A stretch of DNA of 64,000 nucleotides. Origin: a virus (lineage: Duplodnaviria > Heunggongvirae > Uroviricota > Caudoviricetes). Position 1 is the first letter of the stretch. The number at the start of each line of letters is the position of its first letter. Positions 2,562-55,827 of the stretch are shown here, piece by piece. The stretch covers positions 1-64,000 of IMG/VR virus record IMGVR_UViG_2609459822_000013; one strand, given 5' to 3'. The position numbers and the translations under genes were made by a program. The notes under the pieces are model-generated. The model saw only the letters and a program-made list of their open reading frames with translations, did no database searches and was not told the DNA's origin.

Positions 2562-3971
2562 TTAAAAAGATGCGTTATTCTGATTGTTTCGTTGGTTGAA
2601 TCGGTTTGTACGATGATTCATGGACTGAATACATGCAGACGCTGCGCGGGCCTGGTCACAAGGGAGGATATTGCCGTTGTCATCAAACCGCTGGTAAACA
2701 GTGCCACTTTTCCCGTGACGGTTTTTAGATACAATTATTTCCATATATTCGCGTGCTACAGACTGTTCATCGTAGTAACCATCGCGGTACACCATGATGA
2801 TCCTGTCAGCGTCTTGCTCAAGGTTCCCGGAATCGCGAAGATCTGAATTGTTAGGGCGCTTATTCGGTCGTTCCTCAACGCGGCGTGACAGTTGGGCCAG
2901 CGCCAACACTGGTACGCGCAATTCTTTCGCCATCATCTTCAACGACCACGACAATTGCCCTACAGCGAGATCGTGACGTTCGGCCTTAGCCAGCTTCATT
3001 AACCCGATGTAGTCAATCATTACCATACCCAAGTTGGGGTGTTCCTGTTTCATCCGTTCCGTGGTGGCGCGTATTTCCTCAACCGTTAACTGCGACGCGT
3101 CAACAATCCACACATCAAGATTGGCAAGTGCGCTCATACCCTGGCCAACATGCGCCCACCCCTCATCATCAAGTTTTACCGGATTGCGCAGGCAGTCAGT
3201 TGATAAATTACCAGCGCCAGCGATAGCACGTTCAGTCATCTGATCGAGTGACATTTCAAGCGTAAACAGCAAAACGCCTACCCGCTGACCTTCGCCGCCA
3301 GGGTAAGGGCGTTCGGCAGCCTCGCGGGCAATTGCAAGCGCCAACGCAGATTTACCAGACCCAGGACGTCCGGCGAGAAGCACCAGATCAGTAGCGTTAA
3401 TGCCGCCTAACATTTCGTCGAGTGGGTCAATCCCTGTTTTGATGTTGTCAGAGTTCACGCCACACTCCATGCGTTTACTTAGCACTTCCGTGTATTCCTG
3501 GACAGCATCGCGCAACAGCACCGGGATAATCTGATCTTTTGTTACCTTTAATTTTGAATACCGGGAATCAAAATCTTTCATCGTCTCTTTGACGACCTCA
3601 AGTGTCCCAGTTTCCAGTTTGTAGCGCATATCGTCGATGAGTTCCAACATCTGCCGCCGCTGGTGCTCTTCACGTAGTAGCTGTGCATATCCCTTCAGGT
3701 TGGCAGCAGAAGGGCACGATCGCGCCGTTTGCATTAGCGGTACAAAGTTTTCATTACCAATCTCATCACCAACCAGTAACGCGTCGATAAGATTTCTGTT
3801 TCTGGCTTGCGCCCGGATAATTTCAAAAGCCCGCTTATATAGCGGAATAGTGAATACTTCAGGATCGAGCGTAGCAAGAACGTCTTGCGCGTTAGGTGTA
3901 AGCCCGCCTAACAGGAGTCCGCCTATCACAGCAGACTCTCGTTCTTGTCGCAGTGAGTTAACAGAATCCAT
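2562..3971 (-). CDS. DnaB-family replicative DNA helicase (P22 gene 12-like)
   Basis: 469 aa; Walker A LAGRPGSGKSALALAIA, DnaB C-terminal motifs (LAQLSR..E.R...R.PNNSDLRDSGNLEQDADRI). Confidence 0.85.
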   Translation of the reverse strand: MDSVNSLRQERESAVIGGLLLGGLTPNAQDVLATLDPEVFTIPLYKRAFEIIRAQARNRNLIDALLVGDEIGNENFVPLMQTARSCPSAANLKGYAQLLREEHQRRQMLELIDDMRYKLETGTLEVVKETMKDFDSRYSKLKVTKDQIIPVLLRDAVQEYTEVLSKRMECGVNSDNIKTGIDPLDEMLGGINATDLVLLAGRPGSGKSALALAIAREAAERPYPGGEGQRVGVLLFTLEMSLDQMTERAIAGAGNLSTDCLRNPVKLDDEGWAHVGQGMSALANLDVWIVDASQLTVEEIRATTERMKQEHPNLGMVMIDYIGLMKLAKAERHDLAVGQLSWSLKMMAKELRVPVLALAQLSRRVEERPNKRPNNSDLRDSGNLEQDADRIIMVYRDGYYDEQSVAREYMEIIVSKNRHGKSGTVYQRFDDNGNILPCDQARAASACIQSMNHRTNRFNQRNNQNNASF

Positions 3972-3987
3972 TATGGCATTACCTCCG

Positions 3988-4003
3988 GTTTACAAAATGG
4001 AAT
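3988..4003 (+). repeat. dispersed motif copy GTTTACAAAATGGAAT
   Basis: exact 16-mer; overlaps the last codons of the phosphoesterase gene, just upstream of the helicase RBS. Confidence 0.6.
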
Positions 4004-5108
4004 ATTCAGGGTAATAAACAAAGCGCCCGATTTCCCCGTGATCAGGACTGTAAATTATTCCCGCCGTCAGACGCCGCGACCGCCAGCCGCCATTCGTTGA
4101 ATAAGCGTCTTTGCCCGCTAACGTGCCGTGATACTCAACAACGCCTAACGATGATTCAATCAACCGTTGGTGGTGCCAGTGCCCGCAATGAGCATAAACC
4201 GCCGCAGACTTACCGAAATCTTCCCGCCAGTCAGAGACGCAGGCAGACAACAAATTTTCTGGTTTTTTGATGGTGTGTCCGTGGTGGTAAGCAAGGAATG
4301 TTTTGCCGTACTGTGTGTGGTGTACGATAGCAGGTGACACGTCAATCGTTACGCGCGGTTCATCTTCGTAAAAAGCCGCCAGCGCAGCACGTAGCCAAAT
4401 CATCCCCGACTGATCGTGATTACCTGATAATACCTGGATTTCGATTTCTTTGTGGTTTAACAACATCTTTCCTACAGCACGGCGGACTGACCGGATCGCC
4501 ACATAAACAAGTTTTGCGTAGCGTGAATCGCAATCAAGTACGTGATTGCTTGATGGCGTCACTGGCAACAGCCCATCAGTGTGAAGAACATCCCCACCGA
4601 GAAGCAATACAGCTTTTTCAGACATCGGCGCTGCGCCTACCGCGTAGTCAAAGAAATCATTTAGCACGCGTTCAGCGATCCCGGTGTCGTAGCTCTCACC
4701 GCATTCAGCTTTATGAGCAAGCGCCCCGATATGCAGATCGAATACCGGATAAAGGGCCAGGCTTTTTTGGAAATCAATTTCCGGCACTGGCACGGCCTCC
4801 GCGCGTGGCATGTCTTCCGTGAAAGCATCGCAAGCCGCTTGCATTAGCCTTTCCATTTCATCGCGATCACGGGCTGTTTTAATCCAGCGCATAATCACAT
4901 TGCCATCCTTATCGACGAGCAATGACTCACCATTGACGCCAAAGCCCGGCGCGCGACGCGTGGATATTAAACCGCGTTTCGCCAACCGTGCGCCCAGGCG
5001 TTCGACGTTGCGTTTTGCCATTCCATATTCTTCTGCTATTTGCTTGTAAGTTTTCCCCTTGTTGTACTCGGCGATCAGTTCCTCATCGCTGATCTTTCTT
5101 TGTGACAT
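3990..5108 (-). CDS. N-terminal HTH fused to calcineurin-like metallophosphoesterase
   Basis: 372 aa; HTH YKQIAEEYGMAKRNVERLGARLAKRG; phosphoesterase motifs GGDVLHTDG, SGNHDQSG, HHGH, GHWHH. Confidence 0.6.
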   Translation of the reverse strand: MSQRKISDEELIAEYNKGKTYKQIAEEYGMAKRNVERLGARLAKRGLISTRRAPGFGVNGESLLVDKDGNVIMRWIKTARDRDEMERLMQAACDAFTEDMPRAEAVPVPEIDFQKSLALYPVFDLHIGALAHKAECGESYDTGIAERVLNDFFDYAVGAAPMSEKAVLLLGGDVLHTDGLLPVTPSSNHVLDCDSRYAKLVYVAIRSVRRAVGKMLLNHKEIEIQVLSGNHDQSGMIWLRAALAAFYEDEPRVTIDVSPAIVHHTQYGKTFLAYHHGHTIKKPENLLSACVSDWREDFGKSAAVYAHCGHWHHQRLIESSLGVVEYHGTLAGKDAYSTNGGWRSRRLTAGIIYSPDHGEIGRFVYYPEYSIL

Positions 5109-5285
5109 AACGTTATTACCCCCGGTTCGCGGAATGAGTATTTATTCATAAATAACTAATTTTTATTAACATGGATTTCACGGTGTCAAAAAATGCCAGT
5201 AGGGTTAATCAACAACTTATGCAAATTGAAATAACCACTTAATGAATAACTAATCGTATACATTACGGTTTACAATTTGTATACA

Positions 5286-6341
5286 TTAGGATATAGCACA
5301 ACGGAAAAACTTGCACCCCAAATAATCTTCAATGCGTTTTTGTCTTATCGCATCGCTTTTTACTTGCCGTTTGTGATGTGACTCATCAATTTCTACAGCA
5401 ACGTTATTCACAGGATCGTAGCCATCAATAAAATACTTATTGCCAGCAACATCAACAGGATATTGCCTTATTAATTTAACTCCTTTTAGTTTTTCATACA
5501 TAGTTAAGCCAGCATGTTCATAACGCTTCCTAATCATATTTTTACAATTATCTCTCATTTCTGATAATTTCGAGTCGCACTCCTTTTTTATTTCTTCAAT
5601 TACATTTTTATCGCTTTTTAATTCAATAAAGTTTTCTATGTCGTTATAATTCCCGCATTCAAAATTATTATTAAGACCTTTATTTTCACCCCATGCATGA
5701 TACTTTTCTGCCATCTTATCGCTAATATATCTTTCATACCCATAATTTGTTTTAACTATAAAATATTCAATATTTAAATCAATGGTAAACTCATCATTAT
5801 TGAGGTGTTCAGTTAAAAACGCATCTGGATCTGCAATATCGCTTGAATGGAACAACCTTACCCATAGTTTTTCTATTGATACTCCGCGAGTGACGAACAA
5901 CCATTTTTTGTACTTTTCAGCATCTTCTTTTGACACATACACAGAACATCGCCCAGGAGTATCACTCGTTTCAACATAATTGTTACACCATAAAATATAA
6001 TTATAAGCATAAGGACTATCTTTTTTGGTGTTATTTGAATATTTATTAAAGATATCTTGCAAGTCAACTAATCCACAAGATTCAATAACTGGCTTAACCC
6101 ATTTTTCATTATATTCATAATGTCTATATTTACCAGGTGTAACGAATCTAATAAACGTTATGGGTGTGATATACACATCATCACCATCAACAATAAAATC
6201 CTTGTATTCCTCAAATCCGTAAAGATCAGAGTATTTAACAAATGATTTAAGTCTATCAATTTCAAGTTCAGAAACCAGATTATTAACAGACAGTAATTGC
6301 GTGTCCTTACAATTGAGTTTCATATGATAAGTAGCAATCAT
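5286..6341 (-). CDS. AT-rich accessory protein with C-terminal restriction-endonuclease-like (Vsr/DUF559-type) domain
   Basis: 351 aa from ATG with perfect AAGGAGG RBS; strongly AT-rich codon usage; C-terminus GNKYFIDGYD...VAVEIDESHHK...DAIRQKRIEDYLGCKFFR matches the Vsr/DUF559 pattern. Confidence 0.55.
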   Translation of the reverse strand: MIATYHMKLNCKDTQLLSVNNLVSELEIDRLKSFVKYSDLYGFEEYKDFIVDGDDVYITPITFIRFVTPGKYRHYEYNEKWVKPVIESCGLVDLQDIFNKYSNNTKKDSPYAYNYILWCNNYVETSDTPGRCSVYVSKEDAEKYKKWLFVTRGVSIEKLWVRLFHSSDIADPDAFLTEHLNNDEFTIDLNIEYFIVKTNYGYERYISDKMAEKYHAWGENKGLNNNFECGNYNDIENFIELKSDKNVIEEIKKECDSKLSEMRDNCKNMIRKRYEHAGLTMYEKLKGVKLIRQYPVDVAGNKYFIDGYDPVNNVAVEIDESHHKRQVKSDAIRQKRIEDYLGCKFFRCAIS

Positions 6342-6492
6342 ATATACCTCCTTTATTAATTTTCTATATAACGCCTCAGACGAGCTACAACGCAAAAATC
6401 CCACCGCGTAACCCGTTTACAGGTTGCAGTGTCTTATTGCGCTAGAGGCGCTATCAGGTGGCTAATTTTCGATTTACAGACTGGTAGGTAGG

Positions 6493-6726: not shown

Positions 6727-7773
6727 TCAAAGAACGCCAGCGCGCGTATCACGTAGCGTTTTTGGTTTAAGCAGAAAATCAAGTGTCGCAGTGAAGCCAT
6801 TGCCAAAGTAAAAATCTGAAGCCGTGTTTTTGAACGTTTCGAAGTAGGCGACAAAGCCGTTAATGCTTTTGTCTTTCAGGTAGTCAGTGAACGCATAGAT
6901 CTTGCGTTCAAGATCCCGATCCAGTTCGGCAGGTGGTAACAGGCCGTCAAACGTGCTGTTAAATGCTTCCACCACGTCGGCAGCGTTTACAGTAGCTGAT
7001 AGCTTGCGCCATTGTTCAGCATCAGCCAAATACCCATCAAACCTAGTTACCCGGCAAATGTTGATAGGCTTAGGTACTCCATCACGGCTACGCCATTGGG
7101 TTAAAGCCCACTCAATTACTAACGTGATCTCATTCTCCGTATACGCTTTACATGTTTTTGTTTCTGTCAGTAGTTCTACGAATGGCTTAGCATCACGACA
7201 TTTGCATCCTGCCTTGTCGTTGTAGAAGGCAAGGCAACGCAATGCCGCTTCGTTTACGCCATCCTGATTGACCATTTTTTGTTCATTTTCGACAATACAC
7301 GAAGTGTATATATCTTTTTCTCTTTCTTTTTCTACTTCTAATTCATGACCCTTTCCTGACCCGGTCATGACCCTATCATGACCTTTTTGTGTTGGATTGA
7401 TTAACTTTTCTAATTTTAATTGTTCCTTCGCTGTGTTTATGGCGGCCCTGTAAGCGCTTTTAGAAGTCATTGATTGGTCCAGCCTTTTCAATAACTTTAA
7501 ACAAGTTATGTGGCCTTGAGAACATTCAAACAAACCAATTTCGATGAAGTATTTCATCATTTCTTCTATACGTTTTTCAGTAGATCCGACGTTTCGCGCA
7601 ATTATTCTTGCGTCATGTCGTAGGTCAAAAGTTAGATTGTGCTGATCTACGTCATAAGTTATTAGTTCTAGGCAATACCAATAAAGCCCGTACCCTTCCA
7701 GGCCATAATCTAACAAAACGTTTTGAAGTTTTTCATCGCGGTTCGCATCGCTGTCATGCTTAAACCACTTCAT
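6727..7773 (-). CDS. phage replication initiation protein (DUF4373-type N-terminus)
   Basis: 348 aa; N-terminus MKWFKHDSDANRDEKLQNVLLDYGLEGYGLYWYCLELI characteristic of phage replisome organizers; GGAGGG RBS. Confidence 0.7.
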   Translation of the reverse strand: MKWFKHDSDANRDEKLQNVLLDYGLEGYGLYWYCLELITYDVDQHNLTFDLRHDARIIARNVGSTEKRIEEMMKYFIEIGLFECSQGHITCLKLLKRLDQSMTSKSAYRAAINTAKEQLKLEKLINPTQKGHDRVMTGSGKGHELEVEKEREKDIYTSCIVENEQKMVNQDGVNEAALRCLAFYNDKAGCKCRDAKPFVELLTETKTCKAYTENEITLVIEWALTQWRSRDGVPKPINICRVTRFDGYLADAEQWRKLSATVNAADVVEAFNSTFDGLLPPAELDRDLERKIYAFTDYLKDKSINGFVAYFETFKNTASDFYFGNGFTATLDFLLKPKTLRDTRAGVL

Positions 7774-7776
7774 AGA

Positions 7777-8034
7777 TCATCCCTCCGGCAACATCACTAC
7801 ATAGACATCACTGAATGCATCAAGACGACAAACAAATCCTTTATCCATTAACGCGGCGAAGGCATCATGTACCGTATGAACAGGAAGTTCACACATTGCG
7901 GCTACTTCTTTGCGTGATGCATCATGTACCCGTCCTTTGTTATCTGCCTTTTCAGCCAGAGCCATTAAGACAAGTTTTTGAATCGGGCTGTTAAGTTTTA
8001 CGTTCCATACTTCATTCATCATGTGCATACTCAT
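7777..8034 (-). CDS. early HTH regulator in Cro position (85 aa)
   Basis: divergent from the CI-like gene; start chosen at ATG with AGGAGA RBS; HTH-like segment SRKEVAAMCELPVHTVHDAFAALMDKG. Confidence 0.5.
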   Translation of the reverse strand: MSMHMMNEVWNVKLNSPIQKLVLMALAEKADNKGRVHDASRKEVAAMCELPVHTVHDAFAALMDKGFVCRLDAFSDVYVVMLPEG

Positions 8035-8253
8035 CGTGTTTTCTCCTATGGTTAGAGTGAACGCGCGGGCGGGCATCCCATTAGCATTAGATAGCAGTGA
8101 CTGACCGCTCAACAGATCCCGCCGTTGCGTGATATTTGTTTTTCGCTTCGCAGCGACACCGGATTTTTAAAGAGCTTAAGGTAAGTGCCTTTTTGTGCCT
8201 TCCGTTATCTTTTTCCTTGCGTCTTTGCAAGTATGGCCTTACCTTGTCTGCAA

Positions 8254-9110: not shown

Positions 9111-9139
9111 TTGACTCGATGTTTTACGGGGCGTATATT
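9111..9139 (+). promoter_or_regulatory. candidate sigma70 promoter (pL-like): TTGACT-N17-TATATT
   Basis: near-consensus -35/-10 with 17 bp spacer downstream of repressor terminator and upstream of the nut-like site. Confidence 0.4.
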
Positions 9140-9393
9140 GCGAGTCAAAGGAAGGGCGCAGGTAACAAAAGCAACTTCCTGGCACTTTAAAAATCAGGCT
9201 TAACACCTTGTCAACCGTGGAGTAACTCCCCGATGGGGGACCGAAAGCGGCACTGATAACAAGGCGCATGGGGTGTTTAAAGCGTTACATCCCCCACGAA
9301 ACCGCACGCAAGGCGACGAGTCAGCTTGCTTGGAGTGAGCAAGGTCACGCCGGGAACGGCGATGATTGCGGGATTAGTTGCAAGATGTTAAGC

Positions 9394-9431
9394 CGCTCAT
9401 TAACAATCTGGTCAGCCGCTGGAAGTGCGGC
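9394..9431 (+). promoter_or_regulatory. nutL-like site: boxA-like CGCTCATTAACAA plus boxB-like hairpin GCCGC-TGGAAGT-GCGGC
   Basis: boxA closely resembles the recalled boxA consensus; 5 bp stem hairpin 8 nt downstream; ~55 nt upstream of the N-like gene. Confidence 0.5.
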
Positions 9432-9487
9432 AATTAACGAAGATGATTTTTTATTAAGTATCATCAAGGATATACGGAGATCAGATT

Positions 9488-9778
9488 ATGAGCGTTACAA
9501 TTATATATGGTAAATGTGATAGCAAAATGAATGCCAGGGAACGCAGAAGGATAAAAAGAGAAAACGAAAGAAAATCATCACCTGCAATCAATAAAACAGA
9601 CAATGTGGATAAAGCTATTCGATTTGCAAACGAGGAAAGATGCAAACCGAATGGCATTAAAGAGCATCGCAAAGGTGCGGCAAAATGGTATGCGGAAAAC
9701 GAAAGCGGCAATTACTACCACGCAACACAACCGCGTAGTCTAGGGGAAAAACCCCTGGATAAAGTACGCTACAGATAA
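9488..9778 (+). CDS. N-type transcription antiterminator (P22 gp24-like)
   Basis: 96 aa; N-terminus MSVTIIYGKCDSKMNARERRRIKRENERK resembles recalled P22 gene 24 N-terminus and carries an arginine-rich motif; ACGGAG RBS. Confidence 0.65.
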   Translation: MSVTIIYGKCDSKMNARERRRIKRENERKSSPAINKTDNVDKAIRFANEERCKPNGIKEHRKGAAKWYAENESGNYYHATQPRSLGEKPLDKVRYR

Positions 9779-52971: not shown

Positions 52972-53976
<1,005 letters not shown>

Positions 53977-54022
53977 CAAAAGCAATTTTCCCGGATGTCT
54001 GTATACAAAAACGCCGCAAAGT

Positions 54023-54036
54023 TTGAGCGAAGTCAA
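54023..54036 (+). promoter_or_regulatory. FNR-box-like site TTGAG-CGAA-GTCAA upstream of fnrS
   Basis: near match to TTGAT-N4-ATCAA; ~35 bp upstream of sRNA 5 prime end. Confidence 0.45.
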
Positions 54037-54071
54037 TAAACTCTCTACCCATTCAGGGCAATATCTCTCTT

Positions 54072-54193
54072 GCAGGTGAATGCAACGTCAAGCGATGGGC
54101 GTTGCGCTCCATATTGTCTTACTTCCTTTTTTGAATTACTGCATAGCACAATTGATTCGTACGACGCCGACTTTGATGAGTCGGCTTTTTTTT
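54072..54193 (+). ncRNA. fnrS: FnrS small regulatory RNA
   Basis: recalled FnrS sequence (GCAGGTGAATGCAACGTCAAGCGATGGGCG...) and zntB-dbpA intergenic location; ends in hairpin GCCGACTTTGATGAGTCGGC + T9. Confidence 0.75.
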
Positions 54194-54250
54194 GCCTGTT
54201 ATTTATCAGCGTCTACCCTTTAAGAGTCCACCCAATGACCGGAGGGAAAT

Positions 54251-54424
54251 ATGACGACACTTATTTATTTGCAAATTCCTGTCCCTGAACCGATTCCTGG
54301 CGATCCTGTTCCAGTGCCCGATCCGATCCCTCGTCCGCAACCCATGCCTGACCCACCACCCGATGAAGAACCGATTAAATTGTCGCATCGTGAGCGTAGA
54401 TCTGCGAGGATACGCGCCTGCTAA
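54251..54424 (+). CDS. small proline-rich protein (57 aa)
   Basis: GGAGGG RBS; MTTLIYLQIPVPEPIPGDPVPVPDPIPRPQPMPDPPPDEEP...; below ORF-track cutoff. Confidence 0.4.
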   Translation: MTTLIYLQIPVPEPIPGDPVPVPDPIPRPQPMPDPPPDEEPIKLSHRERRSARIRAC

Positions 54425-54453
54425 CTTTGCGTCGATGACCACGAGAATAGATT

Positions 54454-55827
54454 GTGACCGCTTTTTCTACCCTGAATGTTTTGCCTCCCGCCCAACTCAC
54501 GAACCTTAATGAGTTGGGTTATTTAACTATGACGCCGGTGCAGGCCGCCGCGCTTCCGGCGATCCTTGCCGGAAAAGATGTTCGCGTGCAGGCGAAAACC
54601 GGCAGCGGCAAAACGGCGGCTTTTGGCCTCGGCTTGTTACAGCAAATTGATGCGTCGCTATTTCAAACCCAGGCTTTAGTGCTGTGTCCTACGCGTGAAC
54701 TGGCGGATCAGGTGGCAGGTGAATTGCGTCGGTTGGCGCGTTTTCTGCCAAATACCAAAATTTTGACGTTGTGCGGTGGTCAACCGTTCGGTATGCAGCG
54801 TGATTCGTTGCAACATGCGCCGCATATTATCGTGGCAACGCCGGGCCGTTTGTTGGATCATCTGCAAAAAGGCACGGTATCACTGGATGCGTTGAATACG
54901 CTGGTGATGGATGAGGCCGACCGCATGCTGGATATGGGATTTAGCGACGCCATTGATGATGTCATCCGTTTTGCGCCAGCATCTCGACAGACGCTTCTGT
55001 TTTCGGCAACCTGGCCGGAAGCCATCGCCGCAATCAGCGGACGAGTGCAACGCGATCCTTTAGCGATTGAAATTGACTCAACAGATGCTCTGCCACCTAT
55101 TGAACAACAATTTTATGAGACATCCAGCAAAGGCAAAATTCCGTTGTTGCAACGGTTATTAAGTTTGCATCAGCCATCCTCTTGCGTGGTGTTTTGCAAT
55201 ACCAAAAAAGATTGCCAGGCTGTCTGCGACGCGCTGAATGAAGTAGGGCAAAGTGCATTGTCGTTACACGGCGATCTGGAGCAACGTGATCGCGATCAGA
55301 CCCTGGTACGTTTTGCTAACGGTAGCGCCCGTGTACTGGTTGCGACTGATGTTGCTGCGCGAGGTCTGGATATTAAATCGCTTGAGCTGGTGGTGAACTT
55401 TGAGCTGGCGTGGGATCCTGAAGTTCATGTGCATCGCATCGGTCGTACAGCGCGTGCAGGAAATAGCGGTCTGGCGATCAGTTTCTGTGCCCCGGAAGAA
55501 GCACAGCGGGCCAATATCATTTCTGACATGTTGCAGATAAAACTTAACTGGCAAACGCCGCCAGTTAATAGTTCTATTGTGCCGCTGGAAACCGAAATGG
55601 CAACGTTATGTATCGATGGCGGGAAAAAAGCCAAAATGCGCCCGGGTGATGTATTAGGTGCGCTGACAGGAGATATCGGGCTTGATGGCGCAGATATTGG
55701 CAAAATCGCCGTGCATCCGGCGCATGTCTATGTCGCGGTGCGTCAGGCTGTTGCTCATAAAGCATGGAAACAGTTACAGGGCGGGAGGATTAAAGGAAAA
55801 ACGTGCCGGGTGCGGTTATTAAAATAA
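54454..55827 (+). CDS. dbpA: ATP-dependent RNA helicase DbpA
   Basis: 457 aa, GTG start; DEAD-box motifs (AKTGSGKT, MDEAD, SAT, HRIGRTAR). Confidence 0.9.
   Translation: MTAFSTLNVLPPAQLTNLNELGYLTMTPVQAAALPAILAGKDVRVQAKTGSGKTAAFGLGLLQQIDASLFQTQALVLCPTRELADQVAGELRRLARFLPNTKILTLCGGQPFGMQRDSLQHAPHIIVATPGRLLDHLQKGTVSLDALNTLVMDEADRMLDMGFSDAIDDVIRFAPASRQTLLFSATWPEAIAAISGRVQRDPLAIEIDSTDALPPIEQQFYETSSKGKIPLLQRLLSLHQPSSCVVFCNTKKDCQAVCDALNEVGQSALSLHGDLEQRDRDQTLVRFANGSARVLVATDVAARGLDIKSLELVVNFELAWDPEVHVHRIGRTARAGNSGLAISFCAPEEAQRANIISDMLQIKLNWQTPPVNSSIVPLETEMATLCIDGGKKAKMRPGDVLGALTGDIGLDGADIGKIAVHPAHVYVAVRQAVAHKAWKQLQGGRIKGKTCRVRLLK

Follow-up and report, generated by a model that had tools for sequence, protein, structure and literature searches.

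A helix-turn-helix metallophosphoesterase of the PHROG 704 family beside the replicative helicase gene of a temperate coliphage

What might a phage enzyme that joins a helix-turn-helix (HTH) to a metallophosphoesterase (MPE) be doing beside the gene of a replicative helicase? The question is raised by a 64,000-nucleotide (nt) stretch of viral DNA, positions 1 to 64,000 of the IMG/VR record IMGVR_UViG_2609459822_000013, which we call the window. On its minus strand, at 3990..5108, a gene with an ATG start encodes a 372-amino-acid HTH-MPE protein of the PHROG 704 / T1 gp16 family. The gene is real and far beyond chance because its full-length homologues reach E values down to 1e-244 in the homologue search, and an earlier note on this DNA had described the open reading frame correctly. 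A GGGGG resembling a ribosome-binding site lies ~9 nt 5' of the start codon. We tentatively favor, without calling it probable, a stand-alone, HTH-tethered, metal-dependent nuclease or phosphodiesterase that would act on DNA early in lytic growth.

Domain architecture, active site and fold

The protein consists of three parts. A three-helix HTH resembling sigma-70 region 4 and LuxR/GerE domains occupies residues ~1-46 (4971..5108, minus strand), as placed by profile matches and the structural model. The linker domain (residues ~55-100; 4809..4946, minus strand), defined by the model and the alignment, forms a beta-hairpin with a conserved W75 followed by a long helix. The MPE catalytic domain covers residues ~114-366 (4011..4769, minus strand) and contains all five motifs of the superfamily (DxH, GD, GNH(D/E), H and GHxH) as D124xH126, G172-D173xxH176, G229-N230-H231-D232, H275-H276-G277-H278 and G309-H310xH312. 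Every motif string listed in the earlier note is found, namely GGD at 171-173, GNHD at 229-232, HHGH at 275-278 and GHWHH at 309-313; motif I, D124-L-H126, is present as well and was absent from that list. The motifs, the alignment and the family-level HTH matches together confirm the note's description of an HTH joined to a complete calcineurin-like phosphoesterase.

Conservation was assessed in an alignment of 52 relatives with 23-56% identity. D124, H126, G172, D173, T184, N230, H231, H276 and H312 are invariant in it, and the nearly invariant positions include H176, L191, D192, D194, R196, D232, G309, H310, D334 and R346. This invariance indicates that each canonical metal ligand is under strict selection. 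Motif II is followed by a family-specific signature of roughly VTPxSGHxLDxDxR, the insert that carries T184 and L191-D192xD194xR196. In the linker, G69 and W75 are also nearly invariant.

The HTH matches of the MPE protein alone are weak (Pfam HTH_28, Rrf2, HTH_Crp_2 and Sigma70_r4_2, E 0.016-0.028, all below the cut-off). Family members match Sigma70_r4_2 at best at 1.5e-9 and GerE at 2.4e-8, as well as HTH_50, HTH_30 and others, and the family profile matches GerE in the PDB (1fse) at E 0.0035. A hidden Markov model of the N-terminal columns matches 171 of 199 family representatives, a partly circular count as some of these sequences were used in building it, and the N-terminal extension is missing in only ~6 representatives. 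As judged from these sequence comparisons, the HTH is weak for the MPE protein alone but solid at the family level.

The MPE protein has no match to Pfam Metallophos (PF00149) at E up to 0.1, nor a Metallophos match in NCBIfam, and only 11 of the 52 relatives match PF00149 at E up to 0.01. The family is too divergent for the Pfam model, and it is by motifs and fold that it is assigned to the superfamily. An AlphaFold2 model derived from 41 aligned sequences (mean pLDDT 81.9, pTM 0.71) predicts an N-terminal bundle of helices 8-16, 21-28 and 32-44 (pLDDT ~80), a linker with strands 58-65 and 71-78 and helix 79-98, and the four-layer alpha/beta sandwich of the MPE fold at 114-365. In Foldseek searches against solved structures, the top matches of the model are the Mre11 proteins of T. 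maritima and M. jannaschii (E 1.5e-7, TM ~0.4), followed by Vps29/YfcE-type proteins, PolD DP1, Rv0805, GpdQ and LpxH. The best PDB sequence match of the MPE part of the family profile is likewise T. maritima Mre11/SbcD, at E ~0.03. With the single sequence, phmmer against PDB sequences returned nothing meaningful, a BFVD fold search returned only uncharacterised phage proteins, and a PADLOC scan returned no match for the MPE. We read the model as a divergent MPE that leans towards the nuclease branch, by a small margin over small-molecule phosphodiesterases.

An ordinary Ser/Thr protein phosphatase of the NinI/lambda type with an N-terminal extension would show the same superfamily motifs, and the MPE gene does lie in a lambdoid-style early region near NinB. 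However, the NinI/PPP signatures GDxHG, GDxVDRG and GNHE and the PPP fold do not appear in the MPE protein, which is placed by fold and profile with nuclease-leaning MPEs. We therefore rejected a NinI-type phosphatase, to which we give next to no chance; the profile and structure comparison agrees here with the earlier note, which had already set the protein apart from the short NinI-type enzyme.

A widespread family and its candidate activity

With its residues 4-368 aligned to positions 2-387 of the 390-position profile, the MPE protein matches phrog_704 ('DNA repair exonuclease') over its full length at E 5.1e-135. By tblastn, a family homologue is present in 2045 of 50,697 phage records, in 1959 of them over at least 80% of the length, and the hosts of these phages include Escherichia, Klebsiella, Salmonella, Vibrio, Campylobacter, Flavobacterium and Rhodobacter. 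When 1.84 billion cluster representatives (clusters at 50% identity) were scanned exhaustively with HMMER, 4272 clusters matched at E <=1e-3 and 910 at <=1e-30. Members are usually 370-450 amino acids long, and ST16 (gp16) of T1 is annotated as one of them. In a pangenome survey, the family was found in 508 of 522 Drexlerviridae as a core gene (PMC13164509). A second, profile-based homologue search added little diversity, and a locus search with an 11-sequence alignment returned mostly close relatives.

The MPE protein thus adds one more member to a phage family that is known and extremely common. Its sequence is unremarkable in itself; PHROGs and thousands of GenBank phage records already list the family. 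The earlier note had called such an enzyme unusual here; its family is instead among the commonest enzyme families of phages, and GenBank and PHROGs label it 'DNA repair exonuclease' or 'phosphoesterase'. The former name is a guess from homology, and some GenBank records carry 'transcriptional regulator', 'Rrf2 family' or 'winged HTH protein' instead. The 'phosphoesterase' of the Metis and PUA-Cal-HAD preprints was considered and set aside, as it is a bacterial defence protein and not a PHROG 704 member. The interest of the MPE lies in the size of the family and the lack of a reported activity in the literature searched, not in the locus of the window. The family combines an invariant active site with extra residues outside the canonical motifs (T184 invariant, D192 invariant or nearly so), and knowledge of its substrate would put a function to a gene carried by thousands of phage genomes that are used for therapy.

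Hanrivervirus homologues (Drexlerviridae) are 65% identical to the MPE protein. One of them belongs to the virulent phage herni (L002, 6001-7116), in which the flanking genes are unrelated to those of the window. High MPE identity between unrelated flanks implies that this one gene has been exchanged by temperate and virulent phages.

The phrog_704 match, the invariant metal-ligand motifs, the Mre11-like GDxxH of motif II, T. maritima Mre11 as the first match in Foldseek and in the profile search, and a DNA-binding-type HTH in at least 86% of family representatives all speak for the DNA-directed nuclease or phosphodiesterase that we favor. The protein would be a catalytically competent binuclear metallophosphoesterase, as the motifs and the model predict, held on nucleic acid by its sigma-r4/LuxR-like HTH. 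It would hydrolyse phosphodiester bonds in DNA as a metal-dependent, probably Mn2+-dependent, exo- or endonuclease without a SbcC/Rad50 partner. We infer that it acts early in lytic growth, so that DNA breakdown or end processing might support phage DNA replication and nucleotide supply. If the MPE indeed drives the breakdown of host DNA, it would bear on how defences that sense DNA degradation, such as Metis and PUA-Cal-HAD, see T1-like phages.

Alternatively, the MPE might be an anti-defence phosphodiesterase that, early in infection, destroys the cyclic mono-, di- or oligonucleotide messengers of bacterial immunity or related nucleotide signals. We hold this to be decidedly unlikely. The earlier note likewise named a phosphodiesterase acting on signalling nucleotides, for which the analysis found no support. 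The HTH is conserved, and the MPE is slightly nearer to nucleases than to Rv0805, GpdQ and LpxH. The phage enzymes known to degrade immune signals have other folds (2H, MBL). In addition, no link to anti-defence was found in the literature searched, and the persistence of the gene in the Drexlerviridae core contrasts with the patchy occurrence of typical anti-defence genes.

The position of the gene varies widely among phages. In T1, the gp16 gene follows dam and small open reading frames and precedes an HNH gene and the lysis cassette; in phage herni, the MPE gene precedes the holin gene. K1G and Jersey-like phages carry it in a short operon within the tail gene region, Vibrio phages carry it between lysis and head genes, and Dinoroseobacter phage R4C carries it near the integrase gene. 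An HNH homing-endonuclease gene lies directly downstream of the MPE gene in T1 (L062, 42028-42510) and at three other loci (L004, 7171-7671; L009, 6137-6610; L005, 7181-7690), the phages with this arrangement being T1, Jersey-like, Shigella and Vibrio phages. The HNH genes directly 3' of the MPE gene suggest that it is a frequent landing site for homing endonucleases.

To sample lineages evenly, the MPEs of 205 loci were clustered at 60% identity into 38 lineages. BLAST clustering of the +/-4 neighbours across these lineages revealed no conserved partner, and the best neighbour family occurs in 5 of the 38. A Pfam scan of the 148 +/-2 neighbours returned integrase (4), dATP/dGTP diphosphohydrolase (3), HNH (2), NinB (2) and singletons; DnaB is not among the top families. 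Ribonucleotide reductase and NinG also occur as neighbours across the sampled lineages. With the dATP/dGTP diphosphohydrolases and NinB, they tilt the neighbourhood towards nucleotide and DNA metabolism, in line with the enzyme that we favor. No SMC/Rad50 family member is found among the 148 neighbours, the window itself not having been scanned exhaustively for them.

The integrases, 4 of 148 neighbour proteins, touch on another reading, in which the protein is primarily a DNA-binding regulator, or a recombination-directionality or transcription factor, and its phosphoesterase domain is secondary. The HTH is conserved, regulator-type names exist in GenBank, and the MPE Bxb1 gp47 reportedly moonlights as an integrase directionality factor independently of its active site. 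Against this, the catalytic residues are all invariant, and because this holds over thousands of clusters the enzyme activity is under selection. The MPE is also a core gene of strictly virulent phages that have no integrases, and its relation to Bxb1 gp47 is undetectable beyond the superfamily (hhalign probability 19%). We regard a regulator of this kind as highly improbable.

One gene order recurs conspicuously in independent lineages: the MPE, then a HAD phosphatase, then a T4-gp1-type deoxynucleoside monophosphate (dNMP) kinase. Downstream of the K1G MPE, these genes match HAD_PNKP (6.7e-20) and phrog_415 'polynucleotide kinase' (8e-67), and phrog_139 (dNMP kinase, 6e-46). In Thermus phage Lalka8, the MPE is followed by NT5C/HAD, DNMK/phrog_139 (3e-29) and, three genes downstream, an Rnl1-type RNA ligase (2.9e-13). 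The HAD and dNMP kinase genes occupy offsets +1 and +2 in 21 of 91 Drexlerviridae/mEp-cluster loci, and two environmental contigs have the kinase at +1. Polynucleotide kinase and dNMP kinase are reported as the commonest genes right after the exonuclease in Drexlerviridae (PMC13164509). The recurrence of the MPE-HAD-dNMP kinase order favors a role in DNA breakdown and nucleotide supply.

The same neighbours could also be read as a repair set. The MPE would then heal the ends of broken RNA (e.g. tRNA cut by an anticodon nuclease) or of DNA, with 2',3'-cyclic phosphodiesterase or 3'-phosphatase activity. Its role would resemble that of the MPE domain which bacterial Pnkp uses in end healing, and its partners would be a HAD phosphatase of the PNKP type, a kinase and a ligase. 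The HAD_PNKP phosphatase directly downstream in K1G fits such a set, and the T4 Rnl1-type ligase of Lalka8, a single RNA ligase, keeps a reading as RNA repair alive. However, the P-loop neighbours match the T4-gp1-type dNMP kinase (phrog_139 and Pfam DNMK, at the E values given above) and not polynucleotide kinase. The ligase occurs in one lineage only, local searches having found none in the other loci, and no Pnkp chain appeared in the PDB profile search at E up to 10. An HTH would also be an odd companion for tRNA repair. With no polynucleotide kinase, dNMP kinase or RNA ligase homologue found in the window, end healing seems to us unlikely.

Several observations weigh against the DNA-directed enzyme that we favor. 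The lack of kinase and ligase homologues in the window counts here too, the dNMP-kinase neighbourhood occurs in only 4 of the 38 sampled lineages plus Lalka8, and the ligase of Lalka8 fits RNA repair instead. The protein has no SbcD/Mre11 C-terminal capping domain, and no SbcC/Rad50-like gene lies beside it, its neighbours encoding DnaB and a DUF559-like protein. A general statement in the literature holds that temperate phages leave host DNA undegraded (10.1101/2025.11.05.686725). Finally, no functional study of the PHROG 704 / T1 gp16 family was found in the literature searched.

The locus in the window and the helicase

The phage of the window belongs to the mEpimmI group of Nus-dependent, non-lambdoid temperate coliphages. 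Its helicase is 96-97% identical to those of mEp021, mEp515, mEp044, mEp554, mEp013 and mEp010, and its MPE is 95% identical to that of MagusPhagus and 90% to that of mEp010_12. The paper describing the group does not discuss the MPE gene (PMC11893012). Similar prophages occur in 35 of 5426 complete E. coli genomes, where PGAP labels the MPE gene 'hypothetical protein'. More than 40 related viral contigs show a constant order of a leftward cI, then rightward HTH-rep, Lin1244/O-like initiator, variable slot, MPE, DnaB and a MarR-like gene, with NinB further on past the latter. The MPEs of these loci are 87-97% identical, so that the constant order reflects only recent common ancestry.

The earlier note had placed the replicative helicase directly downstream of the MPE gene, and correctly so. 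The P22 gp12-like, DnaB-type helicase gene at 2562..3971 (minus strand; DnaB_C 4.2e-75, DnaB N-terminal domain 7e-12, phrog_19 5e-109) is the next on that strand, and only 18 nt separate the MPE stop codon from its ATG. The note further suggested that the MPE occupies the slot of a helicase loader or replication accessory factor, and this is not borne out for a loader. The helicase shares 57% identity with the product of P22 gene 12, and its match in P22 records extends over gene 12 and the initiator gene 18 alike, so that the two genes abut with no other gene between them. P22 gp12 itself is the classic example of a DnaB counterpart in phages that is not known to need a loader of the DnaC or P type. 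Searches of the MPE protein with Pfam, NCBIfam and PHROG detected no AAA+, lambda-P or DciA-like domain; a weak match to phrog_270 'replication initiation protein' (E 0.0048) covers only the HTH. The adjacency of MPE and DnaB is confined to the closely related mEpimmI-type phages, and in the 38 sampled lineages no DnaB was found within two genes of the MPE. Because neighbours and positions of the family differ across other lineages, it is lineage-specific, and we rejected the MPE as a helicase loader: there is no loader domain and no coupling across lineages, and the P22 helicase gene adjoins the initiator gene. The place of the MPE gene beside dnaB should not be over-read as that of a new helicase loader.

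A broader version of this idea is an accessory factor that works physically with the DnaB-type helicase, either as a loader or as a replisome-coupled nuclease, comparable to the small subunits, of MPE type, in archaeal PolD and eukaryotic B-family polymerases. The conserved order in the 40+ loci could be taken in its favor, but it reflects relatedness only. In three related temperate phages (L041, L042 and L044), ~530 nt are inserted between MPE and dnaB at ~9130-9660, with no plus-strand open reading frame of at least 50 amino acids in the insert. The cross-lineage neighbours, the direct succession of initiator gene and gene 12 in P22 and the lack of loader domains all argue against such a partner, as does the position of the MPE beside lysis genes in T1-like phages. 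We therefore consider it very unlikely, and the DnaB-type helicase is a neighbour and at most a putative functional partner of the MPE.

The DNA-directed nuclease or phosphodiesterase could be accommodated here in a looser way. In mEpimmI-type coliphages, the MPE would be co-transcribed with the P22-type initiator-helicase module and would form an accessory cassette there. A bolder proposal is that the T1 gp16 / PHROG 704 proteins constitute a distinct class of partner-less, HTH-tethered, Mre11-like nucleases, recruited in mEpimmI phages as a replication-coupled nuclease within the initiator-helicase operon. This is doubtful, and we would grant it a small chance at best.

The initiator gene (Lin1244_N/O-like; Lin1244_N 6.2e-11, phrog_20981 2.9e-155, phrog_345 1.2e-19) lies at 6727..7773 on the minus strand. 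Inside it, at 7343-7383, are three overlapping, partly palindromic 19-nt repeats with 11-nt spacing and the core TCATGACC, which are probably origin iterons by analogy with the lambda ori inside gene O. Upstream, at 7777..8112 (minus strand), is the gene of a small HTH protein that is similar to replication initiators in their N-terminal part (phrog_4617, 6.6e-22). Among related phages this protein is 33-100% identical, and the adjoining Lin1244 initiator is usually 87-98% identical. The contrast has the appearance of modular exchange, perhaps of the specificity for an origin or operator.

Between initiator and MPE, the variable slot holds a gene at 5286..6404 (minus strand). Its 372-amino-acid product has a DUF559/Vsr-like endonuclease C-terminus (DUF559, E 2e-4) and matches PADLOC mREase_II ('Type II methyl-directed restriction enzyme') at 1.4e-8. 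This gene is found in only a few related phages (L023, L032, L033 and L056); elsewhere in related prophages it is swapped for BRO/ANT-like or zinc-ribbon genes, or missing. It is outside the conserved module and may be a moron or a defence gene. Scans for repeats and promoters in the vicinity of the MPE gene found no element with a clear link to it. In the 177-nt gap upstream of the MPE gene, two 23-nt direct repeats that both include GTATAC lie in tandem at 5249-5294, and a second pair lies at 5145-5160 and 5239-5254. These repeats could be an operator or part of an inserted cassette.

At the right end of the window (52993-62380), host DNA encodes a CorA/ZntB-like transporter, the DbpA helicase and a PP-loop TtcA-like protein. 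Past these host genes is the end of a second, Rac-like prophage, with integrase (56943-58178), RecT (58927-59793) and exonuclease VIII (59729-62380) genes. This places the end of the mEp-type prophage near 52.4 kb, close to another prophage.

Comparison with known systems

Among known systems, lambda NinI belongs to the same superfamily as the MPE, and its gene, too, lies in the early or nin region of lambdoid type. PolD DP1 and the eukaryotic polymerase B-subunits have only the general MPE fold in common with the MPE protein, which carries no OB domain, and the MPE-carrying phages encode no PolD-type catalytic subunit. SbcD/Mre11 is closer in fold. Motif II of the MPE protein reads GDxxH (G172-D173xxH176), as does that of Mre11. 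Their identity is only 11-17%, however, and the MPE protein, unlike SbcD/Mre11, has an N-terminal HTH and the family-specific insert with T184 and LDxDxR. Since it has neither the capping domain nor an adjoining SbcC/Rad50-like gene, we rejected membership in the SbcD/Mre11 family. The Mre11/SbcD-like nuclease proposed in the earlier note survives as the best-fitting class of activity, though not as a family assignment.

The MPEs of cluster A mycobacteriophages (A10ZJ24 Gp48, Bxb1 gp47 and L5 gp54; PHROG 221) are also stand-alone, early and located among replication genes; Bxb1 gp47, a Gp48 homologue, lies among primase and helicase genes. A10ZJ24 Gp48 is an early phosphodiesterase. It breaks down dsDNA in vitro, whether linear, plasmid or genomic, as well as host DNA in vivo, and phage DNA replication in M. 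tuberculosis requires it (PMC12287305). By analogy, Gp48 is the best functional parallel for the MPE protein, but the Gp48-type MPEs are ~255 amino acids long, have no HTH and form a different family. Membership in the Bxb1 gp47 family was rejected, since gp47 matches phrog_221 and not 704, the hhalign probability is the 19% given above, and motif II is out of register. The closest counterparts are T1 gp16 and the other PHROG 704 proteins, which share the HTH-linker-MPE architecture and the invariant residues with the MPE of the window. In Drexlerviridae, the T1 gp16 family gene precedes the lysis cassette, whereas the MPE gene of the window sits between the initiator and the helicase of a temperate phage.

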